Part shown: piece after piece, positions 10,082 to 56,165 of the stretch
Layout: each line of letters opens with the position of its first letter
Numbering within the stretch: the first letter of the stretch is position 1
Assembly (NCBI GenBank): GCA_902578115.1
Contig: CACHBR010000002.1
Span: 59,863 to 123,862, forward strand
Direction of reading: 5' to 3'
DNA length: 64,000 nt
DNA from: an uncultured Pelagibacteraceae bacterium
GTDB taxonomy: Bacteria; Pseudomonadota; Alphaproteobacteria; Pelagibacterales; Pelagibacteraceae
Program-made: the position numbers and the translations under genes
Notes under the pieces: model-generated
What the model saw: the letters and a program-made list of their open reading frames with translations, nothing else
Databases searched by the model: none
Told to the model about the DNA's origin: nothing

Positions 10082-11245
10082 ATGTCATCTAAAATAAAAG
10101 TTTTACAAGTAATTCCAAGACTTGGTTACGGAGGTGCAGAGACAGGTTGTTATGACCTTGCTCATTATTTAGCCGAGAAAGATTGTAAATCTTACATAGT
10201 TACAAGTGGAGGACCATTACTAAAATTTATTAAAAAAAATAAAGTCAAGGTCATTAGGTTACCAGTTCATTCAAAGAATCCTCTGCTTATGATTATTAAT
10301 GCTATAATTCTTTTAGTTTTAGTATTTATTTTAAACATTGATATTATTCACGCCCGAAGTAGAGCACCCGCTTGGTCTTGTTGGTTGGCGAATCTTCTAA
10401 CACGGAGAAAATTTGTTACTACTTTTCATGGCACATATAATTTTAAAAGCAGAATTAAAAAGTTTTACAATTCTATTATGCTTAGGTCTGAATTAACTAT
10501 TGCTGGATCTAATTTCATTTTTGACCACATACACACTAATTATAGTAGTCATTTAAGTAAAAACAAAAAATTGTTAGTAATATTTAGAGGTATAAATACT
10601 GAATATTTTAACAAATCAAATGTTACTGAAGAAAAAGTAGAAAGATTTAATTCCACATTAAAGTTAGATGTTCAAACTTTTAAAATTCTTTTACCTGGAA
10701 GATTGACTAAGTGGAAAGGTCAAGAAATGTTTTTAGAGGCTATAAAATTGCTAAAAACAAAATATTATAAAACAAATTTTAAGGCCGTAATATTAGGCTC
10801 ACATCAAGGTCGTAAAGTTTTTTTCAAAAAACTTATTTCAATGGTTGATCAATACCAATTGAAAGATAATGTTATATTTTTAAGCTTTTGTGAGGAAATG
10901 CCTGTTGCCTATAAGAGTGCAGATGTAATTGTATCTTCATCTATAGAGCCCGAAGCTTTTGGAAGAGTTGCAGTAGAGGCACAAGCAATGGAAAAACCAA
11001 TTCTCGCAAGTGATTTAGGTGGATCAAAAGAGACTGTAATTAATGGTAAATCAGGATTTTTATTTAAAAATGGAGACCCAAATTCTCTTGCACAAAATTT
11101 AAATTATATTATTGAAATGGATAAAGACAAGTTGCAATCAATTGGAAATGAGGGTAGGAAAAATATATTGATAAAATTTGATGTAGAAAAAATGTGCCAA
11201 TCAACATTTGCTGAGTATAAAAAATTGTTAAAACAAAAACATTAA
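10082..11245 (+). CDS. Glycosyltransferase, GT4 (GT-B fold) family
   Basis: 387 aa. N-terminal GGAETG is present, and the C-terminal E-x7-E region reads EAFGRVAVEAQAMEKPILASDLGG. Confidence 0.85.
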   Translation: MSSKIKVLQVIPRLGYGGAETGCYDLAHYLAEKDCKSYIVTSGGPLLKFIKKNKVKVIRLPVHSKNPLLMIINAIILLVLVFILNIDIIHARSRAPAWSCWLANLLTRRKFVTTFHGTYNFKSRIKKFYNSIMLRSELTIAGSNFIFDHIHTNYSSHLSKNKKLLVIFRGINTEYFNKSNVTEEKVERFNSTLKLDVQTFKILLPGRLTKWKGQEMFLEAIKLLKTKYYKTNFKAVILGSHQGRKVFFKKLISMVDQYQLKDNVIFLSFCEEMPVAYKSADVIVSSSIEPEAFGRVAVEAQAMEKPILASDLGGSKETVINGKSGFLFKNGDPNSLAQNLNYIIEMDKDKLQSIGNEGRKNILIKFDVEKMCQSTFAEYKKLLKQKH

Positions 11246-13165
11246 ATGCCGAATATTACTTTACCAGATGGAAAAAAATTAAGTTTTAAGAACAATGTAA
11301 CTGGATATGAGGTTGCTGAAAAAATTAGTAAGTCACTTTCAAAACAGGCTCTTATAGTAAGTGTGGATGGAGTGTTGAAAGATTTAAGTTTTTCAATTCA
11401 AAAAGACTCTTCTGTTAAAATCATAACTAGCAAAGATAAAGATGGTCTCGATGTAATCAGACATGATGCAGCACACATAATGGCAATGGCCGTTCAAGAA
11501 TTATTTCCAGGAACCCAAGTTACTATAGGTCCTGTTATTGAGAATGGTTTCTTCTATGATTTTGCAAGAAAGGAACCATTTACTAAAGATGATTTAAAAA
11601 AAATTGAGAAGAAAATGTCAGAGATTATCGACAGAGATGTTAAAACAAAACGTGAAGTATGGGACAGAGATAAAGCAATAGCGCATTTTAAAAAAATTGG
11701 CGAAAAGTATAAAGCTGAGATTATTGAGAGCATCCCTAAAAATGAAGAATTATCAATTTATCATCATGGAGATACTTGGCACGATCTTTGTAGAGGTCCG
11801 CATTTAGTTTCATCAGGAAAAATAGGAAAAGCTTTTAAATTAACAAAAGTTTCTGGAGCTTATTGGAGAGGGGACTCAAATAATGAAATGCTACAAAGAA
11901 TTTACGGAACATGTTGGAGTTCTAAAAAAGAATTAGATGAATATTTACACAGACTAGAAGAAGCAGAAAAAAGAGATCATAGGAAGTTAGGTAAAGAGAT
12001 GGATCTTTTTCATTTCAGGGAGGAAAGCCCTGGATCTGTTTTTTGGCACGAGAAGGGCTGGAATTTATTTCAACGGCTTGTAGAGTACATGAGATTAAAG
12101 CAAAGAAATGCTGGATATAAAGAGATAAGCACACCAGAACTTTTAGATAAAAGTCTTTGGGAAAAATCAGGACACTGGGAGAAATTTGGTCATCACATGT
12201 TTACATCAGAAACACCAGACGAAAAAGTTTTTGCTGTGAAACCAATGAATTGTCCTGGTTGTGTTCAAGTATTTAATCAAGGTCTTAAAAGTTATAGAGA
12301 TTTACCTTTAAAGTTATCTGAATTTGGAAAAGTTCATAGATATGAACCATCTGGAGCATTACATGGCCTTCTAAGAGTTAGAGCTTTTACTCAGGATGAT
12401 GCACATATCTTTTGTACCGAAGAGCAGATAACAGATGAATGTATTAGTGTTACAAAATTAATATTGGATATTTACAAAGACTTGGGATTTGAAAAAGTAT
12501 TCCTTAAGTATTCTGACAGACCAGAAAAAAGAGTTGGTGATGATAAAATCTGGGATAAGTCAGAAAAAGCTTTGCTTGCGGCAATTAAAAAAACAAAATT
12601 AGAATATACTATAAATAAAGGAGAGGGTGCTTTTTACGGTCCTAAAATAGAATTTGTTTTGAGAGATGCCATAGGAAGGGACTGGCAATGTGGAACTTTA
12701 CAAGTTGATTTGAATTTACCAGGAAGACTTGGTGCAACTTTCGTAGACAAAGATGGAACTAAAAAAGTACCTGTAATGTTACATAGAGCTCTTTTTGGTT
12801 CTTTAGAGAGATTTATAGGTATAATTATTGAAAACTATGCAGGCAAACTTCCATTTTGGCTATCACCTTCACAAGTTGTTGTATTGCCTATAGCCGAAGA
12901 GCACAATGACTATGCAAAAAAAATATTTAAAGAACTCTTTAAAGAGGGTATAAAATGCGAAGTGGATTTAAGAAATCAAAAAATTAATTATAAAATAAGA
13001 GAACATTCTTTATCAAAAGTTCCTGTACTATTAATTTGTGGAGGAAAAGAAGTAATAGATAAAAGTGTAAGTATACGTAAACTTGGATCTGAAAAACACG
13101 AAGTTAAAAAATTCGAAAAAGCTCTTAAAGAATTTAAATCATCAAATAACCTACCAATTAAATAA
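11246..13165 (+). CDS. thrS: Threonyl-tRNA synthetase
   Basis: 639 aa. It has an N-terminal TGS-like domain, an editing-domain HxxxH (RHDAAHIMA), a class II core (FRVRAFTQDDAHIF; HRALFGSLERFIG) and an anticodon-binding C-terminus. Confidence 0.97.
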   Translation: MPNITLPDGKKLSFKNNVTGYEVAEKISKSLSKQALIVSVDGVLKDLSFSIQKDSSVKIITSKDKDGLDVIRHDAAHIMAMAVQELFPGTQVTIGPVIENGFFYDFARKEPFTKDDLKKIEKKMSEIIDRDVKTKREVWDRDKAIAHFKKIGEKYKAEIIESIPKNEELSIYHHGDTWHDLCRGPHLVSSGKIGKAFKLTKVSGAYWRGDSNNEMLQRIYGTCWSSKKELDEYLHRLEEAEKRDHRKLGKEMDLFHFREESPGSVFWHEKGWNLFQRLVEYMRLKQRNAGYKEISTPELLDKSLWEKSGHWEKFGHHMFTSETPDEKVFAVKPMNCPGCVQVFNQGLKSYRDLPLKLSEFGKVHRYEPSGALHGLLRVRAFTQDDAHIFCTEEQITDECISVTKLILDIYKDLGFEKVFLKYSDRPEKRVGDDKIWDKSEKALLAAIKKTKLEYTINKGEGAFYGPKIEFVLRDAIGRDWQCGTLQVDLNLPGRLGATFVDKDGTKKVPVMLHRALFGSLERFIGIIIENYAGKLPFWLSPSQVVVLPIAEEHNDYAKKIFKELFKEGIKCEVDLRNQKINYKIREHSLSKVPVLLICGGKEVIDKSVSIRKLGSEKHEVKKFEKALKEFKSSNNLPIK

Positions 13166-13705
13166 GTGCAAAAACCAAACTATTTTCAAAGAAGAACTAA
13201 ATTTCAAGGACCCCGTACTAATCACAGAATTAGAAGTATAGATGTTCAAGTTATAAATAGTAGCGGCGAAAACTTAGGAGTTCTTCCTTTAAAGAAAGCA
13301 ATTGAGACAGCCAAAGAAGAAGGACTTGATCTAATCGAAATATCTCCTAATGCAAATCCTCCAGTTTGTAAGATTATGGATATGGGTAAATATAAGTATG
13401 ACATGCAAAAAAAAGCCAACAAGGCAAAAAAGAACCAAAAAATTGCGACACTAAAAGAATTAAAATTAAGACCTGGAACCGAAATACATGATTATAATTT
13501 TAAAATAAAAAATGCAAAAAAGTTTCTTCAAAAGGGTGATAAAGTAAAATTTACGGTAAGATTTAAAGGCAGGGAAATGCAACACGTCAACCTAGGTAAA
13601 GATTTGATGAATAGAATTATTGAGGATACGAAGGAAATTGGGAAAGTAGAAGTAAAACCAAAATTTGAAGGCCGCCAAATGATAATGATTATTCACCCTA
13701 ATTAA
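13166..13705 (+). CDS. infC: Translation initiation factor IF-3
   Basis: 179 aa with IF-3 N and C domains ([12 protein letters not shown]...; [17 protein letters not shown]). The only in-frame start is GTG, immediately after the thrS TAA. Confidence 0.92.
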
Positions 13706-13746
13706 TCATTGTAAATTTAAATCAAAATATATATAAATCCGATACC

Positions 13747-13953
13747 ATGCCAAAACTTAAAACTAAAAGTTCAGCTAAAAAACGATTTAGATTAACTAAA
13801 TCTGGAAAAGTAAAAATGCCACAAGCTGGAAAAAGACACGGTATGATAAAAAGAACTAATTCTCAAATTAGAAAACAAAGAGGCACTACCATTATGTCAA
13901 AACAAGATTCTAAAATTGTTAAATCATATATGCCTTATAGCTTAAGGGGATAA
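13747..13953 (+). CDS. rpmI: 50S ribosomal protein L35
   Basis: 68 aa. The sequence begins [23 protein letters not shown], and the gene sits in the infC-rpmI-rplT context. Confidence 0.93.
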
Positions 13954-13958
13954 AAAAA

Positions 13959-14315
13959 ATGTCTAGAACAAAAAGAGGTGTTACAAGTAGAGCAAGACAT
14001 AAAAAAGTTTTCAAAGCTGTAAAAGGTCAATGGGGCAGAAGAAAAAATACTATTCGTATTGCTCGACAAGCTATGGAAAAAGCTTTGCAGTATGCTTACC
14101 GAGATAGAAGAGCCAAAAAAAGGGAATTCAGATCTTTATGGATTCAAAGGATAAACGCAGGTGTGAGAGCTGAGGGGCTAACTTATTCAAGATTTATAAA
14201 TGGTCTTAACAAATCGAAAATCAAATTAGACAGAAAAGTTTTAGCTGATTTAGCCTACAATAATCCAGAAGCTTTCAAATCACTTGTAAAAAAAGTTCAG
14301 TTATCAGTAAAATAA
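13959..14315 (+). CDS. rplT: 50S ribosomal protein L20
   Basis: 118 aa. It reads [17 protein letters not shown]...[23 protein letters not shown]. Confidence 0.95.
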
Positions 14316-14356
14316 ACTTGTTTTTTCTTTTATAAAGTTAGAGTAAAAACTAACTA

Positions 14357-15412
14357 ATGATAGATTTACGAGAATTAATTCAAAAGATCTCACAAGCTAA
14401 AGATAAACTGGAGTTGCAAAATATTAAATCACAGTTTTTAGGTAAAAATAGCCAAATCAATCAAGAATTTAAAAAACTTGGCTCTTTATCTGAAAAGGAA
14501 AAAAAAATTAAAGCTTCATCATTAAATAATGAAAAACAAAAAATTACTGAAGCTATTAACAATAGGTTTAAAGAATTAGAAAAATTAGAAATAAGCAAAA
14601 AATTACAAAAAGACAAAGTTGATGTTACTTTACCAGCAAGAGAGAGACCTAATGGTAAAATACATCCAGTCTCCCAGGTGATAGATGAAATCTCATCAAT
14701 TTTTTCTGAGATCGGTTTTTCTGTTGCAGAAGGTCCCGATGTTGAGACCGAATATAATAATTTCACAGCATTGAATACTCCAGAGGATCATCCTGCAAGA
14801 GATATGCACGACACCTTTTATCTAGATAATGACAAAAAAATTTTATTGAGAACTCATACTTCTCCAGTTCAAGTAAGAACAATGCTAAATGGCAAACCTC
14901 CTTTTAAAATTATTGTTCCTGGAAGAACTTATCGTTGTGATAGTGATCAAACCCATGCACCAATGTTCCATCAACTTGAGGGCTTACATATAGATAAAGA
15001 TATAACCATGGGGCATCTGAAAGGTTGTTTAGATTATTTTGTAAAAGAATTTTTTGAAGTTAAAAAAATCAGAATGAGATTTAGACCAAGTCACTTTCCT
15101 TTTACTGAACCATCAGCTGAAGTAGATATTGGTTACAAACTTGAAAACGGAAGAATAATTGTGGGTGAAGGAGATAAGTGGTTAGAAATTTTAGGCTGTG
15201 GAATGGTTCACCCTAATGTTTTAAAAAATGCGAAAGTTGATCCTAATAAGTATCAAGGTTTTGCATTTGGCATGGGTATAGATAGACTTGCTATGTTAAA
15301 ATATGGAATCAACGATCTTAGATCTTTTTTTGAAAGTGATTATAGATGGTTGAATTATTTTGGTTTTGATCCATTGGATGTTCCAACTAACTATCGAGGT
15401 TTGAGTAGATGA
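14357..15412 (+). CDS. pheS: Phenylalanyl-tRNA synthetase alpha subunit
   Basis: 351 aa. Class II motifs are present ([16 protein letters not shown]; [14 protein letters not shown]). Confidence 0.96.
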
Positions 15413-20528: not shown

Positions 20529-21446
20529 TTACTTTGATATCAATAGTCGATTGATCGGCATTGAAAAACGACCTTGTCTTTCAGGATCTCTACTCTGTTT
20601 TGATACCGCCAGAAGATTAGATAACTCAGAAAGTAATATCCCACGAGTCTCTGGTGGTAAGATGAATGAAGCATAAAAAAATCCTGCGGTAGTTTCGGCC
20701 ACTTCAGTAACGGGTCCTTCCATGGATACCACGCTAGTTTTGATATTAATATTAGCATCTGGAAAAGCCTCACTTAAAAGATTTTTTGAGCTATCTGTAC
20801 TACGTATTCTTGGATCACCTAAATCAATCTCGCCATACTTTGGTAGCTTAGCTTGTACGTATTCATAGATTAAATTGTATACATCATTATATCCTGGCGC
20901 TGCATCCATAGGTCCATTGACCAATGCTGCAAACTTTCCACCTGTGGACAGTACACGACGGATTTCATTTAACACTGGAGTAATTGGGTTCATTAATGTC
21001 AAAGCCCAATGGCACAGCACAACGTCTACTGAGTTATCATCAATAGCCGTCAAATTTTGTGCTTTTAACTCAAAAAGATCAACAGAACCTTTTGGTAGAC
21101 GCGCCTTAGCCAGTTCTAATTCTTCAGGACTTATATCCGCTCCTTTTAATTTGAAGTTTTTATTACGATCGTATAAGATTTTTAGTAATGGTCCTGATCC
21201 ACAAGCAAGATCCAGCACACGGATACCATCAACATTAGGCACAATTTCAGCTAACCATTCGTAACTATTGCGTCCAGCCTTGTCGCGGCAAGAACTCGCA
21301 CACTTTTCTGTGAAACCCGCATTATTTCGATGAACAGTTCTTAGATGGGCGAGTAGCGCTTTACTATCTGGCTGTTGATTGTTAGCAAGACTTTCAGTCC
21401 AGGTCGAGTTAAGAACCGCCTGATTATTTTTATTTTTATTTGTCAT
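20529..21446 (-). CDS. Class I SAM-dependent methyltransferase, unknown substrate
   Basis: 305 aa. Motif I is RVLDLACGSGP, motif II-like is VDVVLCHWAL and a post-I acidic residue is present (GADIS). It overlaps the upstream PhyH gene by 11 nt. Confidence 0.85.
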   Translation of the reverse strand: MTNKNKNNQAVLNSTWTESLANNQQPDSKALLAHLRTVHRNNAGFTEKCASSCRDKAGRNSYEWLAEIVPNVDGIRVLDLACGSGPLLKILYDRNKNFKLKGADISPEELELAKARLPKGSVDLFELKAQNLTAIDDNSVDVVLCHWALTLMNPITPVLNEIRRVLSTGGKFAALVNGPMDAAPGYNDVYNLIYEYVQAKLPKYGEIDLGDPRIRSTDSSKNLLSEAFPDANINIKTSVVSMEGPVTEVAETTAGFFYASFILPPETRGILLSELSNLLAVSKQSRDPERQGRFSMPINRLLISK

Positions 21447-22431
21447 CTACTGGCCAGCAAATTGGATTTAGTGGACTAGCTGCTACGTCGCCAGGATTTA
21501 CATTTGGCATGAATTTTTGCCAGTCACCAGAAACCATTGTAGGATTATTTATTACTCGTGCCCCATCCCTAAAATAAGTATTTGCTAAAGCTACTCGGCT
21601 TCGATTAGTTCGGTTTCGTGACGCAGTATGAAAATTTAAATTGTGATGAAAGCTAACTTCACCTAACTCAAATGGTGTTTCATTCACAGTCACACCATTT
21701 TTTCTAAAAACTTCTGATACTCCACGGTCATAACCAGTACCGGTTTTTTCAAAAGTTACAGCATTAACTAGATTATGCACGTCAAGTGGATAAGCGAAAG
21801 AAAGTGGCCCCATTTCAATCGGAGTTGGTTGTGCTGGTACCCAAGCAGTAACTACATCATTGGTATCTAATGGAAAATGATGGTCATCAAAATGCCATGG
21901 TGTTCTTCCACATCCAGCTTGTTTTGCTAAAACGTTATCATGGTAAAGTCTAACCGAAGGAACACCAAGTAGATCCGCTGAAATTTGTCCAAGACGTGGT
22001 GATAATACGTATGCACGTAAAAGTTTGTTTTTAGGCCAGATCATTTCAAGGCTAAGAAACCGGTCATGCGCCTGTGTGTCAGGATCAACATTAAATTCTT
22101 TTTTTAATAGGCTGATCAACTCAGCTCTAAGTTTAAGTATAACACCAGGTGAGAAAACTTTTTTTAGTTTAATAAAACCGTTTTTTCTAAAGAAATTAAT
22201 TTGTTCATTTTTCAATGGGTAAACCTCGGTCAGTTCAAAAACAACCTCATCATCAGTTGGGATTGCAACATTCGGTAAAGGTTCGGCGTTTATTATTGGA
22301 TCCTTTTTTTTGTCATTATCTGCAAGACCAACATACCAGTCCCACCAGGCTTGATTATCTTTATCCCATGGCTTACTAATATCCGCAGCATCAGATATTT
22401 TTGAATTTATCTTGTCTCGAGATGTTTTCAT
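21436..22431 (-). CDS. Fe(II)/2-oxoglutarate dioxygenase of the phytanoyl-CoA dioxygenase (PhyH) family
   Basis: 331 aa. The HxD facial-triad region is TPWHFDDHHFP, and the distal His/Arg region is FHHNLNFHTASRNRTNRSR. This arrangement is PhyH-like. Confidence 0.8.
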   Translation of the reverse strand: MKTSRDKINSKISDAADISKPWDKDNQAWWDWYVGLADNDKKKDPIINAEPLPNVAIPTDDEVVFELTEVYPLKNEQINFFRKNGFIKLKKVFSPGVILKLRAELISLLKKEFNVDPDTQAHDRFLSLEMIWPKNKLLRAYVLSPRLGQISADLLGVPSVRLYHDNVLAKQAGCGRTPWHFDDHHFPLDTNDVVTAWVPAQPTPIEMGPLSFAYPLDVHNLVNAVTFEKTGTGYDRGVSEVFRKNGVTVNETPFELGEVSFHHNLNFHTASRNRTNRSRVALANTYFRDGARVINNPTMVSGDWQKFMPNVNPGDVAASPLNPICWPVDDK

Positions 22432-48625: not shown

Positions 48626-49354
48626 ATGAATTTAAGTTCTAGAAATCTAAAACTTATAATTGGAGTATTTTATCTACTAATTCTATTTTTTGGTCTATAT
48701 TATTTATTTTCTCTAATTGATATTAGAGATTTGACAAGCTATGAGTTTATTAAGTCAAACAAAGAGATTATTATTGATTACAAGAATAATAATTTTCTAT
48801 TTCTTACTATAACATTTTTCTTATTTTCAATAGTTTGGTATTTACTTTTGGGATTTGCATCACCAATTTTGTTATTTTCTGGTTTTGTTTTTGGAAAGTG
48901 GTATGGAATTATAATCGCTGTTGTATCCGCTTCAATTGGAACAACCCTGCTATATCTATTAGCAAAACTCTTTTTTACCGATTTAATAAAAGAGAAATTA
49001 GATCCAAAATTTTCAAGTTTTAAACTTGCCTTTCAAAAAAATGAATTTTTATATTTTACATTATATAGACTTGGCGGTGGAGGTGGAATCCCCTATGGAA
49101 TACAAAATGTCTTACCCGTTTTATTTAATATTTCCATAAAAAATTATTTCATTGGAACATTTATCGGTAGTTGGCCAGCAATGTTCATAAGTGTTGCACT
49201 AGGAGCAGGGATAGAAAAATATATTGAGACAAATGAAAAATTAAGTTTAATAAATATAATCTTATCTCCTGATATTTACTTACCAATCTTAGGTTTTATA
49301 TTGATGCTTTTAGTTGGACTTTTAATTAAAAAATTATTTTTTAAAAAAAATTAG
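48626..49354 (+). CDS. TVP38/TMEM64 (DedA-superfamily, SNARE-associated) membrane protein
   Basis: 242 aa with 5-6 TM segments. The glycine-rich re-entrant-like segment (LLFSGFVFGKWYGIIIAVVSASIGTTLLY) is typical of the family. Confidence 0.7.
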   Translation: MNLSSRNLKLIIGVFYLLILFFGLYYLFSLIDIRDLTSYEFIKSNKEIIIDYKNNNFLFLTITFFLFSIVWYLLLGFASPILLFSGFVFGKWYGIIIAVVSASIGTTLLYLLAKLFFTDLIKEKLDPKFSSFKLAFQKNEFLYFTLYRLGGGGGIPYGIQNVLPVLFNISIKNYFIGTFIGSWPAMFISVALGAGIEKYIETNEKLSLINIILSPDIYLPILGFILMLLVGLLIKKLFFKKN

Positions 49355-49513: not shown

Positions 49514-50956
49514 ATGAATATAAATTATTTTAAAAGTGCTCTTTTACATCATAGCAAAGGAAACTGGAATAAAGCTAAAGAAATTTACGAACATATTTTA
49601 AAAACAGAACCAAATAATTATCCAGTGCTTCAAAATTACGGTCCATTACTCTGTCAATTAAGAGAATATAAATTGGCAAAAAATATTTTTGAAAAAAGTT
49701 TAAAAATAAAACCCCAAGATCCTTTGCTATTATATAACTATGGAAAATTTTACCATGATCAAAAATTGTTTGATGAAGCAATTAAATTCTATAAAGAATC
49801 TTTTAAAATTGAGCCAAAAAATAATTTCTCAATGTATAATATTGGAAATATTTATTTTGCATTAAGTAAATTAGATTTAGCTATTTCAGCATACAGAGAT
49901 AGTTTAAAAATAAATCCAAAAAATTTTTTAGCTCATAATAATTTGGCAAACGCTCTAAAAAATACAGGAAATTTTGAAGAGGCAATTCAATACTATAAAA
50001 GTTCACTTAAACTAAAAAAAGATTATCCTGATATTCACATAAATTATGCCACACAATTACTTATGTTAGAGGATTTTGAAGAGGGTTTTGAGGAATATGA
50101 ATGGAGAAAAAAAAGTAAGTCATTTTTGGACTACATAAATTACAATAAACTTAATTTAAAAAGCAAAGAGTGGAGAGGTGAAAATTTACAAGATAAAAAA
50201 CTACTGGTTATTTCAGAGCAAGGCATTGGCGACCTAATTCAATTTACTAGATATTTATTTGAGCTTAAAAAAGAGAAAGTAAAAATAATAATTTATTTAA
50301 AAAGTAAAAAATTTTCTCATTTTTTTGATAATAAAATTTTTGATATTGTATTTGAGGGCAAGGATATACCTGATCACGACTATCATGTTCACTTATTGAG
50401 TATTTTAAAAATCTTTAATAAAAAAAATAAACTCTTTATAAATCCCGTAAATTTTTTTCAAAAAAATGAAAAAACTCAAATTAAATGGAATAAACTACTT
50501 TCAAACCATAGCGGAATTAAGATAGGTATAAACTGCAACACATCTTTAACTAAAAAAAATATACCAATTAAATTTTTTGTCAATTTAGCATCCGTTTTTA
50601 ACTTTAAATTTATTATGTTGCAAAAAAACTTCAGTAGTGAAAAAGTAAAAAATTCAAAAAATATATTATTTTTCCAGGAAATGGACTCATCAAATGATGC
50701 TTTTGTAGATAGTATTGAAATAATTAAAAAATTGGATCTTGTTATAACTTCCGATACATCAATTGCACATTTATCTGCTACACTAGGGATTAAAACTTGG
50801 ATAGTTCTCCCATTTGTAAGTGATTGGCGTTGGTTTCAAGATAAAAAAAAAACGAAATGGTACAAGAATGTTACTCTTTATAAATCAAAAAAAATTGATG
50901 ATTGGGATAAACCATTCGAAGAAATTAAATTAGATTTAAAAAAAAAGGTTTTCTAA
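49514..50956 (+). CDS. TPR-repeat protein with a C-terminal GT9 (heptosyltransferase-like) glycosyltransferase domain
   Basis: 480 aa. About 5 N-terminal TPR units are present (AKEIYEHILKTEPNN..., AISAYRDSLKINPKN...). The C-terminal half carries ISEQGIGDLIQFTRY and LVITSDTSIAHLSATLG. Confidence 0.75.
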   Translation: MNINYFKSALLHHSKGNWNKAKEIYEHILKTEPNNYPVLQNYGPLLCQLREYKLAKNIFEKSLKIKPQDPLLLYNYGKFYHDQKLFDEAIKFYKESFKIEPKNNFSMYNIGNIYFALSKLDLAISAYRDSLKINPKNFLAHNNLANALKNTGNFEEAIQYYKSSLKLKKDYPDIHINYATQLLMLEDFEEGFEEYEWRKKSKSFLDYINYNKLNLKSKEWRGENLQDKKLLVISEQGIGDLIQFTRYLFELKKEKVKIIIYLKSKKFSHFFDNKIFDIVFEGKDIPDHDYHVHLLSILKIFNKKNKLFINPVNFFQKNEKTQIKWNKLLSNHSGIKIGINCNTSLTKKNIPIKFFVNLASVFNFKFIMLQKNFSSEKVKNSKNILFFQEMDSSNDAFVDSIEIIKKLDLVITSDTSIAHLSATLGIKTWIVLPFVSDWRWFQDKKKTKWYKNVTLYKSKKIDDWDKPFEEIKLDLKKKVF

Positions 50957-50969
50957 AAAAATTTGATTT

Positions 50970-51045
50970 TGGTGCCCATAGCAAGAATCGAACTTACGAC
51001 CTCTTCCTTACCATGGAAGTGCTCTACCAGCTGAGCTATATGGGC
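50970..51045 (-). tRNA. tRNA-Thr (anticodon GGT), CCA encoded
   Basis: The reverse complement is GCCCATATAGCTCAGCTGGTAGAGCACTTCCATGGTAAGGAAGAGGTCGTAAGTTCGATTCTTGCTATGGGCACCA. It folds as a canonical cloverleaf with anticodon loop ATGGTAA. Confidence 0.92.
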
Positions 51046-52650
51046 CTTTTAAAGTATGAACAATCTTTGATTAATAATTTTTTTACATCCGCAATTGTCT
51101 TATCTTCTTCAAAACAATCTTTGCTAACATAGCGATAAAGCTCATCAACCTTTACTGGAGAAATAATATAAATTACCGAGATTTTTTTTCTTGTAATTAG
51201 ATCAATTAAAAAATTTTTATATTCATCAAAATACTTATTATTTTGAATCGGGTATGCCGCACCATTTGGAATGTACCATCGACTTGGAGAATGAAGATTT
51301 TTATTAATTATAAGGGAAAGAAAAGAATAGTTTGACATAACCATAGCTTCATTATTTTCAGCGTTTAATACACCTATAATTTCTCTTAAGAATTTAATTT
51401 CTTCTTCGGGAGAGTTAGGGAATATTGGTGTTATCCATTTTAAACCAGAAAGTTTTTTGTCAATTTTTTTTGCATTTACTGATAAATCAAAATTTATTTT
51501 AGACATTTCATGAAATCTTCTTTCATCATTAAATCTTAAATGATATTTTGAAGTAACAAACAAACAAAATAACAATAAAAAAAATGAAAAGTATTTTTTA
51601 TACCTTATTTCATAATTGTAGATAAATATTGATGAAAAAGCACACAAAACAGGAATTAGAAAAAAAATAAATTCCTGATTTCTGGTATTTATCTGATGAA
51701 TAACTAAACTAAGAATTAATAAAAGAAAAGATAAGAAAAAAAAGAAATTCTCATTAAATATATTTTTTTTAGATTTAATTACATCAAGCAATGTAACTAA
51801 TAATAAAGGTATAAAAGAAATATAGATAAACTTGTAATCAAAAATTATATCACCGGACAAAAAATTAAGTTCGGCAATTCTATTTTTTCCGATCGAAGAA
51901 GGAAAAAGTATGTACTGATCAAAAAAATTCTCAAGTTTAATATTAGTAAAATCAAAAAATAATAGAATAATTATTATGAAAGATAAGGAACTAAAAGTTA
52001 AATACAATAGCCAATTAAATCTTTTTTTAATAAAAATATACAAGATAAGTATTAATGAGACTGAAAAAAAAACATAGACCGAAGGTGCTGATTTGGTCAA
52101 AAAAGCAAGTCCTAAAACAACTGGTAAAAAAATTAGGAATTTTTTTTTATCAGTTTTTAAAGCCATTATTAAACAATAAACAGCCAGTAAACATAATAAA
52201 GATGAATGGTGATCTACATATAAAGTCCCACTAGTTGTATACCCAAGAATCGCAAAACAAAAAGAATAAAAAAAACATTGATAAATATTTAAATTAAAAT
52301 TTTTTAAAATATAAAAAGTTGCAATCGTTAATAAGCAATTAATTAGAGATGCATGCAAAATATAAACTTGAAAATTTTGTCCAAATGCTTTGAAAAAAAA
52401 CAGCTTGCACATAATCGATTAATAATCCCGAAACCAACCAATAATCTTGAAAAGGAATATCTCCATTAATAATTCTAAAAGCTATGTCAAAATGAGCAAA
52501 ACTTTCTATTGGGAAAACGCCTCTATTGGCATAGTATTGGTTTATAATTATAGAAAATACTAAAATAATTAATACAAGAATTTTTTCGTTGAGTTGTAAA
52601 TTTTTTTTAAGCATTTTTGGTAGAAGTAATTTAATTTTTAAAATATACAC
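51036..52650 (-). pseudogene. Polytopic GT-C-like membrane glycosyltransferase (ArnT/PMT-like topology) split into two overlapping ORFs by a frameshift at a T8 run
   Basis: ORFs 52339-52650 (103 aa) and 51036-52412 (458 aa) overlap by 74 nt in different frames. The run of 8 A on the plus strand (52393-52400) is T8 on the coding strand. T7 would fuse them as ...DYVQAVFFKAFGQNFQVYILH..., about 537 aa with roughly 12 or more TM helices. Confidence 0.55.
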
Positions 52651-52659
52651 TTAATTATT

Positions 52660-53976
52660 ATGAAATCCCAATCAAATTTTTCTTTAAATTGGAGTGGTAA
52701 TACTAAAGCGACCCCAAGGATAATTTATCCAAAAAATCTGGAAGAATTAAAAAAAATTATGTCAGAAAAAAATTTTATAATTGCAGGAAATCAGAGATCA
52801 TTTGGAGATAATTCTATTAATACAAACTTGATTGTATCCATGAAAAATTTTAAACAAATTTTAAATTTTGATAAGTCAAAAGGGATCATAGAAGCTCAAG
52901 GTGGCGTATTACTTAAAGATGTACTAGGTTTAATTGTAGAAGCAGGATGGTTTGTACCTGTTACACCTGGTAGCAAATATGTTTCAATTGGTGGAATGGT
53001 TGCTAACAATGTTCACGGCAAAAACATTTCAAATAACCAAATAAAGCACCATATACTTGAGCTTAAAATATTAAATGAGAATAATGAAATTGTAACTTGT
53101 ACTCCAACACAAAAAAAAAATTATTTTGAAAGTACGATAGGCGGATTTGGTTTAACTGGGTGTATTTTATCAGCAAAGTTTAGATTGAAAAAAATCAACT
53201 CAATATTTATGAACCAGGAAATTTTAGAATTCACAAGTTATAATAGTTTTTTTTCACTATTAGCAAAATCAAATTTATATGAATATAACGTAAATTGGAT
53301 AGAAAGTTTTGGTAATGGCTCAATTAAAGGACTATGTTATTTTGGAAAACATGAAAATAATAATAACTCAGATCCTTTGCAAAAATTTAATTTTAAGGAA
53401 AAGGAAATTGATTTTTTTAATTATTTTATTTTGAAAATTTTTACTCAAAATTATTACTTAATAAAATTAACTAAATTTATATTCAGAAAGTTTAAAAAAA
53501 TATTTTATAAAAAAGTCTCAGGTTTTGATGAATTTTTTTACCCCCAAGATTACTTCATAAATTGGAATAAAATTTATGGAAAAAAAGGATTCTTTCAAGC
53601 TCAGTTTTTGGTAAAAGAAAATAATTTTAAAGATATAATGAATAAAATTGCTAAATTTTTTAAAGATGAAAAAATTTTTAGTACTTTTATTATAATTAAA
53701 AAATTTGATGAAAAAGGTAAATATTTGAATTTTTATGGACAAGGTTTTTCAATCTCAATGGATATTCCGATAAACTCAAACTTTGAAAAAACTAAGAATT
53801 TTTTAAATAGTATATTTCAAGAATATGATATAAAAGTTAATTTCTCAAAAGACTCTATTGCAAACAAAGATGTAATAAAAAATAAAGAAGAGTATTCAGA
53901 ATTTGTTAAAGAGTTGAATCTTATTAGTCCAGAAAGGAAATTTAATTCTATTTTCTCTAAAAGACTAGAAATGTAA
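52660..53976 (+). CDS. FAD-dependent oxidoreductase, DprE1-like (polyprenyl-phospho-sugar 2-prime oxidase family)
   Basis: 438 aa. From memory it is collinear with mycobacterial DprE1: NWSGNT.., QRSFGDNS (RSYGDNA in DprE1) and WFVPVTPGSKYVSIGGMVANNVHGKN ([27 protein letters not shown] in DprE1). Confidence 0.8.
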   Translation: MKSQSNFSLNWSGNTKATPRIIYPKNLEELKKIMSEKNFIIAGNQRSFGDNSINTNLIVSMKNFKQILNFDKSKGIIEAQGGVLLKDVLGLIVEAGWFVPVTPGSKYVSIGGMVANNVHGKNISNNQIKHHILELKILNENNEIVTCTPTQKKNYFESTIGGFGLTGCILSAKFRLKKINSIFMNQEILEFTSYNSFFSLLAKSNLYEYNVNWIESFGNGSIKGLCYFGKHENNNNSDPLQKFNFKEKEIDFFNYFILKIFTQNYYLIKLTKFIFRKFKKIFYKKVSGFDEFFYPQDYFINWNKIYGKKGFFQAQFLVKENNFKDIMNKIAKFFKDEKIFSTFIIIKKFDEKGKYLNFYGQGFSISMDIPINSNFEKTKNFLNSIFQEYDIKVNFSKDSIANKDVIKNKEEYSEFVKELNLISPERKFNSIFSKRLEM

Positions 53977-53977
53977 A

Positions 53978-54703
53978 ATGCCAAAAAAAATTTTGATATA
54001 TGGTGGAAGTTCTCTAATTTCAAAGGAGTTAATAAGTATTTATTCTAGGGAAGATTATAATTTTATTATTTTCTGTAGAAAAAAAGAGTCTGTGCTAAGT
54101 GATCTATCAAACCTAAAACTGGATAATAATAAGTTTGAAATTTTTGAGACAGATTTAATTGATCTTCAAAAAAACCTAGAACTAATATCAAAACTAGATG
54201 ACAACATTGATGGAGTTATCTGGATCTCTGGTTATACAGGGGATCCTGTAAAAGAAATCAACGATACAGAATTAGCATTAAATAATATTAAAATAAATTT
54301 TCTAAACCCAGTTTTAATTATAAGTAAGTTATTACCAAAAATTATCAATAATGGAGAAGGTTTTTTGGCCGTGATGTGCTCTGTTGCAGGGTTAAGGGGT
54401 AGAGCTAAAAATATTTTTTATGGCAGCTCAAAATCAGGTTTAATAACTTTTTTATCTGGTTTAAGACAAAAATTTCATAATAAGTTAAATATTGTAACAA
54501 TTATACCTGGCTATATGTCCACAAATTCTTTTAAGGAAAGTGCTCCAAATTTTTTAATTACTTCACCAAAAAAAGCTGCAACTATTATAAGTAAAGCAAT
54601 CAAGACAAAAAAAGAAATTATATATATAAACTCTTATTGGAGAATAATAATGTTTTTTGTCAAAAATATTCCAGAAAAAATTTTTAAAAAATTAAAATTT
54701 TAA
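53978..54703 (+). CDS. Short-chain dehydrogenase/reductase, DprE2-like
   Basis: 241 aa. It has an N-terminal Rossmann GGSSLIS and an SDR YxxxK (FYGSSKSG). The C-terminal tail WRIIMFFVKNIPEKIFKKLKF matches the DprE2 tail pattern ([21 protein letters not shown]) from memory. It starts 1 nt after the DprE1-like stop. Confidence 0.78.
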   Translation: MPKKILIYGGSSLISKELISIYSREDYNFIIFCRKKESVLSDLSNLKLDNNKFEIFETDLIDLQKNLELISKLDDNIDGVIWISGYTGDPVKEINDTELALNNIKINFLNPVLIISKLLPKIINNGEGFLAVMCSVAGLRGRAKNIFYGSSKSGLITFLSGLRQKFHNKLNIVTIIPGYMSTNSFKESAPNFLITSPKKAATIISKAIKTKKEIIYINSYWRIIMFFVKNIPEKIFKKLKF

Positions 54704-55973: not shown

Positions 55974-56165
55974 ATGGGAATTCATTACACTTATAAATCA
56001 ATTAGAGGCGAAAAGGCCATGAAAAAAGAGGCTAAAAGAAAAGCCCGTTTAGAACAAAGAAGAGCTAAAAAGGGATACAAGCCAATTCAAAGCGAAAGTG
56101 AAAAAATGCACGATATTGAAAAAACTATTACTTTAGAAGATTTAACAAATCCCAATAAAAATTAA
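55974..56165 (+). CDS. Small basic hypothetical protein
   Basis: 63 aa with a lysine/arginine-rich helix (KKEAKRKARLEQRRAKKGYKP). No homology is recognised. Confidence 0.45.
   Translation: MGIHYTYKSIRGEKAMKKEAKRKARLEQRRAKKGYKPIQSESEKMHDIEKTITLEDLTNPNKN

Follow-up and report, generated by a model that had tools for sequence, protein, structure and literature searches.

A DprE1/DprE2-like oxidase–reductase pair in SAR11 DNA and its predicted role in editing a lipid-linked sugar

No bacterial lineage in the ocean is more abundant than SAR11. Its surface glycans are believed to control how phages and grazers recognise it, and almost nothing is known of their chemistry. A 64,000-nucleotide (nt) stretch of DNA from an uncultured Pelagibacteraceae bacterium (GenBank assembly GCA_902578115.1, contig CACHBR010000002.1, positions 59,863 to 123,862; this whole stretch is called the window below) encodes two adjacent proteins, an oxidase of 438 amino acids (aa) dependent on flavin adenine dinucleotide (FAD) and a short-chain dehydrogenase/reductase (SDR) of 241 aa. 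An earlier note, written from the sequence alone, likened the two to DprE1 and DprE2 of mycobacteria. Does this pair edit a lipid-linked sugar, which sugar would that be, and where would the product go?

Based on the analysis below, we put at about 80% the probability that the pair and its membrane-protein neighbours form a module in which C2 of a membrane-anchored, polyprenyl-phosphate-linked sugar is oxidised and then reduced again, the product being passed to periplasmic transferases of the GT-C type. Judged by homology, there would be roughly even odds that this sugar is ribofuranose, converted to D-arabinofuranose. The module probably decorates the cell surface with an unusual sugar. Epimerisation coupled to GT-C transfer is well supported because full-length matches to DprE1 and DprE2, kept residues and a kept C-terminal tail, coupling of the two genes, a GT-C fold, a constant membrane partner and precedent in Gram-negative bacteria all point the same way.

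The oxidase and the reductase

The two open reading frames (ORFs) lie exactly where they had been described, with 1 nt between the stop of the oxidase gene and the start of the SDR gene (Table 1). In loci L003–L007 (L numbers are our own handles) the two genes overlap by 4 nt. The SAR11-like origin suggested in the earlier note holds: base composition and gene content of the window are those of SAR11, and two Pelagibacteraceae single-cell genomes, AG-909-P19 and AG-359-B04, encode oxidases that share 94% and 84% identity with this one, respectively.

The NCBIfam DprE1 model NF053785 matches the oxidase over residues 15–438, which correspond to profile positions 12–449 of 449 (E 1.3e-62, 212.5 bits). 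The runner-up family, the sugar-lactone oxidases, reaches 54 bits only, about 160 bits lower. Among proteins of the PDB, DprE1 chains align with their residues 58–466 on residues 39–437 of the query (E ~3e-31), compared to E ~1e-7 for xylitol and cytokinin oxidases, whose matches are confined to the FAD domain. The two-domain architecture of DprE1, FAD_binding_4 followed by a C-terminal substrate-binding domain, is thus aligned end to end, and both profile and PDB searches group the protein with DprE1 and not with gulonolactone, alditol or other FAD-linked oxidases. No signal peptide was evident by eye. The sequence blocks that had first drawn attention to the pair (RSFGDNS, VPVTPGSKYVSIGGMVANNVHGKN and WRIIMFFVKNIPEKIFKKLKF) are present in the translations and align to the matching blocks of DprE1 and DprE2.

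To compare single residues, we aligned 116 SAR11-type oxidases with 28 others, namely DprE1 of Mycobacterium smegmatis and oxidases from plasmids and metagenomes that are linked to a UbiA-type phosphoribosyltransferase (PPPRS). The catalytic and FAD-pocket residues H132, K134, Q334, Q336, K367 and K418 (M. tuberculosis numbering) are kept in at least 87% of the SAR11-type oxidases; the window oxidase has all of them together with D419, and carries Ser in place of Cys387. Across the alignment, 65 of the 94 columns that are at least 90% conserved among the 28 non-SAR11 oxidases are retained in the SAR11 type. Judged from this likeness, the 438-aa protein is predicted to act on a sugar linked to polyprenyl phosphate, whose 2-hydroxyl it would oxidise to give a keto intermediate.

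For the SDR the best model is PRK07102 (NF005489; E 7.7e-50, 169.8 bits), followed by DprE2 (NF053786; E 2.7e-32, 112.4 bits). Its best PDB match is DprE2 in the DprE1–DprE2 complex (E 2e-14), with residues 2–239 on 9–252, tail included. The cofactor motif and the Ser-Tyr-Lys residues are present, and the segments GGSSLIS, SVAGLRGR and YGSSKSG align with M. tuberculosis DprE2 and with SDRs encoded in operons outside SAR11, which are described below. The motifs GxSSxI, SSxAGxRGR and YGSxKxG and the tail W-R-x-I-M..IPE..FKK are common to the window SDR and these operon-linked DprE2-type proteins. The tail of the window protein, WRIIMFFVKNIPEKIFKKL, aligns to that of DprE2 under the pattern W/F-R-x-I/V-M ... 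IP-x-x-x-F-K/R-K-L. A hydrophobic or amphipathic C-terminal tail of this kind is kept in 14 of 14 aligned SDR sequences and probably attaches the enzyme to the membrane.

The position of PRK07102 as best model is informative. Since the SDRs of the UbiA-GtrA-oxidase-SDR operons of Ruegeria and Chondrinema (both loci tested) pass its cut-off, with 339 and 322 bits and DprE2 as second match, PRK07102 represents the DprE2-type family outside the actinobacteria, and the SAR11 SDR is one of its distant members. The earlier assignment of the SDR to the DprE2 type, with its distinctive C-terminal tail, is borne out by PRK07102, by PDB DprE2 and by the alignment alike. We predict from these matches that the SDR reduces the keto intermediate with inverted stereochemistry.

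Compared with DprE1/DprE2 of M. tuberculosis (Rv3790/Rv3791), the SAR11 pair thus belongs to the same two families, adjacent and in the same order, aligned over the full length, with the catalytic and FAD-pocket residues, the SDR motifs and the C-terminal tail kept. The differences are an identity of only about 25–28%, a separate oxidase clade, Ser for Cys387 and changes at Y60, L317, L363 and Y415. The hosts differ as well: SAR11 is Gram-negative and has no arabinogalactan.

Membrane partners and genomic contexts

Polytopic membrane proteins had been noticed on both sides of the pair, one of them GT-C-like. Beside the oxidase gene lies a gene, interrupted in the window as discussed below, whose orthologue in intact form passes the Pfam PMT_2 cut-off (30.9 vs 26.1 bits). 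We modelled the intact 525-aa protein with AlphaFold (mean predicted local distance difference test, pLDDT, 87.8) and found that its Foldseek matches are the glycosyltransferases STT3, AglB, ArnT, PglB and AftA (E 2e-5 to 3e-3). The hallmark of the GT-C superfamily that we used is about 13 transmembrane helices, a C-terminal periplasmic domain and a conserved acidic residue in the first periplasmic loop. In the model there are about 15 long helices (a visual count, not an assignment as transmembrane) and a mixed alpha/beta domain from about residue 365. Among 36 homologues D43 is invariant, its loop position being read off the model, and D67 nearly so. By its modelled fold, the 525-aa protein is a genuine GT-C glycosyltransferase, and it is predicted to be a periplasmic transferase using a lipid-linked sugar.

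On the SDR side stands a 395-aa protein. Most of its homologues carry a precomputed Pfam match to PF27463, the Rv1490 family ('faint' in some), and the window protein itself has no match in the local Pfam library, even at E up to 5, or in the NCBIfam library. We found no published function for this family. W38, N41, G45, F46, R48, R49, G50, G53, P106, K122, L307, D313 and R316 are invariant among its members. The structure model of the 395-aa protein has a pLDDT of 90.3; Foldseek returned nothing significant for it, and the top-ranked entries are all GT-C enzymes (PglB, STT3, ALG3, ALG9, AftB and AftA). An hhalign comparison of the Rv1490-like family with the 525-aa GT-C family was not significant, and profile searches of both membrane-protein alignments against PDB sequences gave no match. 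In one relative it is the pair's sole membrane partner. We regard the 395-aa protein as a candidate second periplasmic transferase dependent on a polyprenyl-phosphate sugar.

Distant genes of the Rv1490 family occur in Bacteroidota in clusters of the O-antigen type (L008, 10001–16743; L099, 8571–13378). There the family gene is followed by two SDR dehydratase/epimerase genes, a Methyltransf_21 gene and a GT2 glycosyltransferase of 244–245 aa, whose best matches (ArnC, PgfS, AglJ, Dol-P-hexose transferase and PpgS) are all under cut-off. L099 also encodes a Wzm/Wzt ABC transporter, and a DprE1-like gene is absent from both clusters. Adjacency to a GT2 resembling polyprenyl-phosphate-sugar synthases would fit a periplasmic transferase role for the 395-aa protein.

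We saw the module in six or more genomic contexts of SAR11-type DNA, and its membrane partners are interchangeable. The context of the window recurs in L001, L002 and L095. In L003–L007 (8387–13226) the four genes of the window module sit between sucC and mdh, and in L098 (5000–8637) the module at this site lacks the 395-aa gene. This region, the lpd-to-mdh block, is conserved and uninterrupted in most Pelagibacter genomes (135 complete genomes; bioRxiv 10.64898/2026.04.03.716430), and accordingly the module behaves as an insertion.

Other contexts differ further. On one contig (that of P0084) the pair lies beside lpd, and its sole neighbour is a 415-aa protein that remains unclassified (its sequence was not read). 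In L094 the module is found beside fumC with an unrelated 607-aa membrane protein, unclassified and without a Pfam match, and in L096 it is found near icl and purH with the order of oxidase and SDR reversed and a different PMT_2 protein. In one lineage (L097, 10001–12632; L101, 5240–7870; L102, 4082–6712) a 431-aa DegT/DnrJ/EryC1 aminotransferase replaces the SDR after the oxidase. Here the oxidase is flanked by two membrane proteins that are weakly PMT_2-like (sub-threshold Pfam matches), inside a large glycan cluster that also has a 237-aa GT2 about 5 kb downstream. This arrangement points to transamination of the keto intermediate, which would give a lipid-linked amino sugar.

Every SAR11-type context seen has at least one large polytopic partner, be it a GT-C protein of the PMT_2 type, a Rv1490-family protein or both; in two of them (L094 and P0084) the partner is unclassified. 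Modules with just one of the two membrane partners occur naturally. Based on gene content over these contexts, three elements are constant: the oxidase, a second enzyme that would take the keto intermediate further, and one or more large polytopic membrane proteins.

In L001 (2992–8307), five genes stand between the TPR-repeat gene (Table 1) and the GT-C gene: a HemN-like radical SAM protein, a PhyH dioxygenase, a 302-aa protein of no assigned function, an aldo-keto reductase and a Zn-dependent alcohol dehydrogenase. The last four of these are visible in L095 (213–4127) before the contig ends, and the window has none of them. A small variable spot thus adjoins the module at the side of the GT-C gene.

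Taken together, we propose the following route. At the cytoplasmic face of the inner membrane, the FAD oxidase would oxidise the 2-hydroxyl of a polyprenyl-phosphate sugar, and the translationally coupled, membrane-tailed SDR would reduce the 2-keto intermediate from the opposite face to give the C2 epimer. The likeliest substrate would be undecaprenyl-phosphate-beta-D-ribofuranose and the product undecaprenyl-phosphate-beta-D-arabinofuranose, and a phosphoribosyltransferase gene at another place in the genome would account for the ribosyl lipid. Once flipped, the sugar would be moved by the GT-C enzyme (frameshifted in the window), the Rv1490-family protein or both to a periplasmic acceptor, for which the lipopolysaccharide core, another surface glycan or a protein are candidates.

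The substrate and the rival readings

A number of results weigh against this proposal. The first concerns the scores. The curated equivalog cut-off of NF053785 is 500 bits, and the window oxidase falls far under it. The PPPRS-linked oxidases of Ruegeria and Chondrinema likewise stay under this cut-off, yet score much higher (386 and 428 bits). The SDR is under the curated cut-offs of both PRK07102 (267 bits) and DprE2 (250 bits). Because both proteins score under these thresholds, they are divergent relatives of DprE1 and DprE2 and not orthologues that can be annotated as such.

Low scores of this kind could also be expected if the two were generic paralogues, an FAD oxidase and an SDR whose substrate is a soluble alcohol or sugar, as it is for alditol or lactone oxidases; they would then have nothing to do with glycan assembly and would lie beside membrane-protein genes by coincidence. 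The weak secondary matches to sugar-lactone and alditol oxidases would agree with such an origin, although they cover the FAD domain only. We nonetheless consider it highly improbable: the DprE1 match runs end to end with its wide lead over any other family, the SDR keeps a tail specific to DprE2, and the oxidase with its SDR (or the aminotransferase in one lineage) is flanked by proteins of the GT-C or Rv1490 type in several unrelated contexts.

The second result is the state of the GT-C gene. Relative to L001 and L002, one extra base (C at 52401, plus strand) breaks it into ORFs of 458 aa (51036–52412) and 103 aa (52339–52650), the break falling after the first periplasmic loop; without C52401 the frame is open from 52614 to 51036, as one ORF of 525 aa. 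Of the two flanking membrane proteins, the 395-aa one is therefore present as had been described, and the other is a GT-C protein by Pfam and fold but is encoded by a gene that a 1-nt insertion has split. This gene is either a pseudogene or the victim of a sequence error. If the former, the pathway may be decaying in this genome, its epimerised donor unused or used by the 395-aa protein alone, and the intact orthologues in L001, L002 and hundreds of metagenomic homologues would make the window the exception. Decay strikes us as quite unlikely, since the rest of the module, three genes, is intact, the extra base lies next to a homopolymer run of 8 bases and may be an error of sequencing or assembly, the source being a single cell or a metagenome, and modules with one membrane partner exist naturally.

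The third result touches the donor. The other 29 of the 94 conserved columns are consistently changed in SAR11, including Y60F, L317Q, L363F, C/A387S, R413K and Y415N. In a neighbour-joining tree all SAR11-type oxidases fall in one long-branch clade outside the group of M. smegmatis DprE1 and 27 PPPRS-linked sequences; this is a distance tree of AT-rich sequences, midpoint-rooted without an outgroup, and is indicative only.

The fourth, and in our view the most specific, is the supply of substrate. As in the earlier note, no UbiA-family phosphoribosyltransferase was found in the window. We searched the window and nine further SAR11-type loci, about 230 kb in all, by tblastn with five PPPRS and four GtrA sequences and with a hidden Markov model (HMM) built from the PPPRS alignment, and found neither a UbiA-type PPPRS nor GtrA. 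This holds for the window-type context, for the sucC-mdh site with and without the Rv1490-family protein, for the lpd side, fumC, icl/purH and the aminotransferase cluster. Genes like Rv3806c, Rv3807c and the GtrA-like Rv3789 were likewise not found near the SAR11 pair. We considered the 395-aa protein as the absent phosphoribosyltransferase and rejected it, there being no UbiA signal by Pfam, HMM or fold.

The situation outside SAR11 is different. The closest relatives there (oxidase 27–34% identical by tblastn, SDR 27–29% by alignment) are found in operons of Alphaproteobacteria and Bacteroidota. Five plasmid loci, from Chondrinema, Ruegeria, Azospirillum, Rhizobium and Cereibacter, show the same arrangement: a UbiA-family PPPRS, often fused to HAD, usually GtrA, then the DprE1-like oxidase and the SDR, with GT39 or large hypothetical membrane proteins nearby. 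All five have the PPPRS directly upstream, and four also have GtrA. A DprE1-like gene also lies beside the PPPRS in 29 of the best 80 metagenomic PPPRS loci, which, among the matches listed, are Bacteroidota-like with a GC content (guanine plus cytosine) of at least 0.31 and uninformative on SAR11. The SAR11 modules share with these operons the SDR family PRK07102 and the large membrane or GT39 genes nearby; they differ in that the PPPRS is upstream there and never in the SAR11 modules, and in that the operon oxidases cluster with mycobacterial DprE1.

The proposal of a D-arabinofuranose donor is thus upheld as far as homology and catalytic residues go, and is weakened by the lack of a PPPRS in the ~230 kb and by an oxidase clade outside the PPPRS-linked group. 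The same chemistry could instead act on another substrate, a polyprenyl-phosphate sugar not derived from phosphoribosyl pyrophosphate (PRPP), such as a hexose or other sugar attached by a small GT2 polyprenyl-phosphate glycosyltransferase, in which case something other than arabinofuranose would be made. None of the eight SAR11-type contexts examined has a PPPRS or GtrA, although the module moves as a unit, and a module inserted in a normally uninterrupted block must use what the recipient already makes. The separate clade with its clade-specific changes at conserved residues, the DegT aminotransferase in place of the reductase with a GT2 in the neighbourhood, and the Bacteroidota Rv1490-family genes that adjoin a GT2 like ArnC, PgfS or Dol-P-hexose transferase, and not a PPPRS, all fit such a substrate.

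Nevertheless, there is no GT2 polyprenyl-phosphate sugar synthase in the window, and long branches or AT bias could have produced the separate clade artificially in the distance tree. Moreover, absence in cis is not proof of absence from the genome; Pseudomonas aeruginosa, too, keeps its sugar-synthesis cluster apart from its GT-C gene. To our knowledge, no DprE1-family enzyme acts on any sugar but ribofuranose. On this evidence a different substrate is the main rival reading and is possible, if on the whole unlikely.

A more explicit version of the same idea is an edit-then-transfer module independent of PRPP, in which a 2-keto sugar would be made from a GT2-supplied donor, a swappable second enzyme would turn it into either the C2 epimer (SDR) or a 2-amino sugar (DegT), and the product would reach the cell surface through GT-C or Rv1490-family transferases that are swappable as well. 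We hold this version to be somewhat more doubtful still. If it is true, the Rv1490 family, one of whose members is an uncharacterised membrane protein of M. tuberculosis, would for the first time be placed in a functional context.

Returning to the conversion of ribofuranose to arabinofuranose, we compared the SAR11 module with characterised Gram-negative systems. The precedent to which the earlier note had pointed is real: in P. aeruginosa Pa5196/PA7 a D-arabinofuranose (D-Araf) pathway (PsPA7_6245–6249) and the GT-C protein TfpW arabinosylate the type IV pilin (bioRxiv 10.1101/2020.04.19.049825). As proposed for SAR11, a proteobacterial DprE1/DprE2 pair there feeds a lipid-linked sugar to a GT-C transferase. 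The gene arrangement is the reverse. In P. aeruginosa the pair shares its cluster with a phosphatase, a PPPRS and a GtrA-like protein, and the GT-C gene lies elsewhere, whereas the SAR11 pair is clustered with transferases, is unlinked from any PPPRS (if one exists) and has no adjacent pilin gene.

In 2024, three-component systems for pentofuranose side chains were described (PPPRS-PRP, a MATE flippase and a GT136 GT-C transferase, with auxiliary epimerases), for example in Citrobacter youngae O1/O2, and DprE1/E2 homologues accompany GT-C systems where Gram-negative glycans contain Araf (PMC11127046). The likeness to SAR11 is one of concept: a lipid-linked pentofuranose donor, optionally epimerised, is used by a GT-C enzyme in the periplasm. 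In both, a GT-C gene is encoded with the donor pathway. The differences are that PPPRS-PRP and the flippase were not found in cis at the SAR11 loci, that the SAR11 GT-C protein is PMT_2/GT39-like (no comparison with GT136 was made), and that there is an extra partner of the Rv1490 family. We noticed no MATE-like ORF among those of the window, for which no MATE profile was run.

More remote parallels are the ArnC/ArnT modification of lipid A and GtrABC glycosylation. There too an undecaprenyl-phosphate sugar is modified and then transferred by a GT-C enzyme, and the 525-aa fold resembles ArnT; a deformylase acts there in contrast to the oxidase/reductase pair here, and the SAR11 module has no GT2 synthase or small flippase.

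We found no literature linking DprE1, decaprenyl or arabinofuranose to SAR11 or Pelagibacter, and in this respect the novelty claimed for the locus stands. The general idea does not share in it, having been described for Gram-negative bacteria in 2024 (PMC11127046). With mycobacteria, the Pseudomonas pilin and the pentofuranose systems the concept is established, and SAR11 would be a further member; that it is a variant with a different donor is a real possibility.

In either case, such a widely distributed and relocatable module leads one to expect a particular change at the cell surface, the addition of D-arabinofuranose or of some other sugar epimerised at C2. Should the donor be ribose-derived, the SAR11 clade would join the recently defined systems of extracytoplasmic pentofuranose glycosylation. 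If it is not, the scope of DprE1-family chemistry would be wider, and the mycobacterial Rv1490 family would gain a lead to its function.

Surroundings of the module in the window

The module and its neighbours are listed in Table 1. The GC content of the window is about 0.29 overall and dips to 0.23–0.25 over 48–56 kb.

Table 1. Module genes and neighbouring features (positions in the window)
Feature	Position	Strand	Basis of assignment
DprE1-like FAD-dependent oxidase, 438 aa	52660..53976	+	Pfam FAD_binding_4 (E 6e-20); NCBIfam DprE1; PDB DprE1
DprE2-type short-chain dehydrogenase/reductase, 241 aa	53978..54703	+	adh_short (E 1e-19); PRK07102; DprE2 NF053786
GT-C fold glycosyltransferase (PMT_2 / GT39-GT83-like), 525 aa when intact	51036..52614	-	Pfam PMT_2 of orthologue; fold
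Polytopic membrane protein of the uncharacterised Rv1490 family (PF27463 via homologues), 395 aa	54708..55895	-	Precomputed homologue annotation
TPR-repeat protein with weak C-terminal GT9-like region	49514..50956	+	TPR families (E 1e-27); Glyco_transf_9 (16.4 bits, under the cut-off of 22)
DedA/VTT-domain membrane protein, two genes upstream of the module	48626..49354	+	VTT_dom (E 9e-15)

Two of these neighbours had been brought into connection with the pair. The DedA/VTT protein was correctly recognised. For the TPR-GT9 protein the repeats are strong and the glycosyltransferase part stays below its Pfam cut-off. The TPR/GT9-like gene neighbours the module in the window, L001 and L002 and in none of the other contexts examined; the DedA/VTT gene occurs in the window-type context only. 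We considered both genes as parts of the module and rejected them on account of this distribution. Recycling of undecaprenyl phosphate is a function of some DedA proteins; the one in the window probably serves a housekeeping role and merely adjoins the module.

A very basic ORF of 63 aa separates the 395-aa gene from dcd (MGIHYTYKSIRGEKAMKKEAKRKARLEQRRAKKG..., about 55974–56165, plus strand); this ORF is conserved and is called as a gene in L095 (9138–9329).

Further away, the segment 20001–22500 has a GC content of 0.38 compared to about 0.30 in its flanks. It contains a methyltransferase-like ORF of 305 aa (20529–21446) and a PhyH-like ORF of 331 aa (21436–22431), and these two ORFs may have been acquired from elsewhere. 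Finally, a GT4 glycosyltransferase gene is followed by thrS, infC, rplT and pheS at 10082–15412, which matches a block of glycosyltransferase and translation genes conserved in Pelagibacter (bioRxiv 10.64898/2026.04.03.716430).

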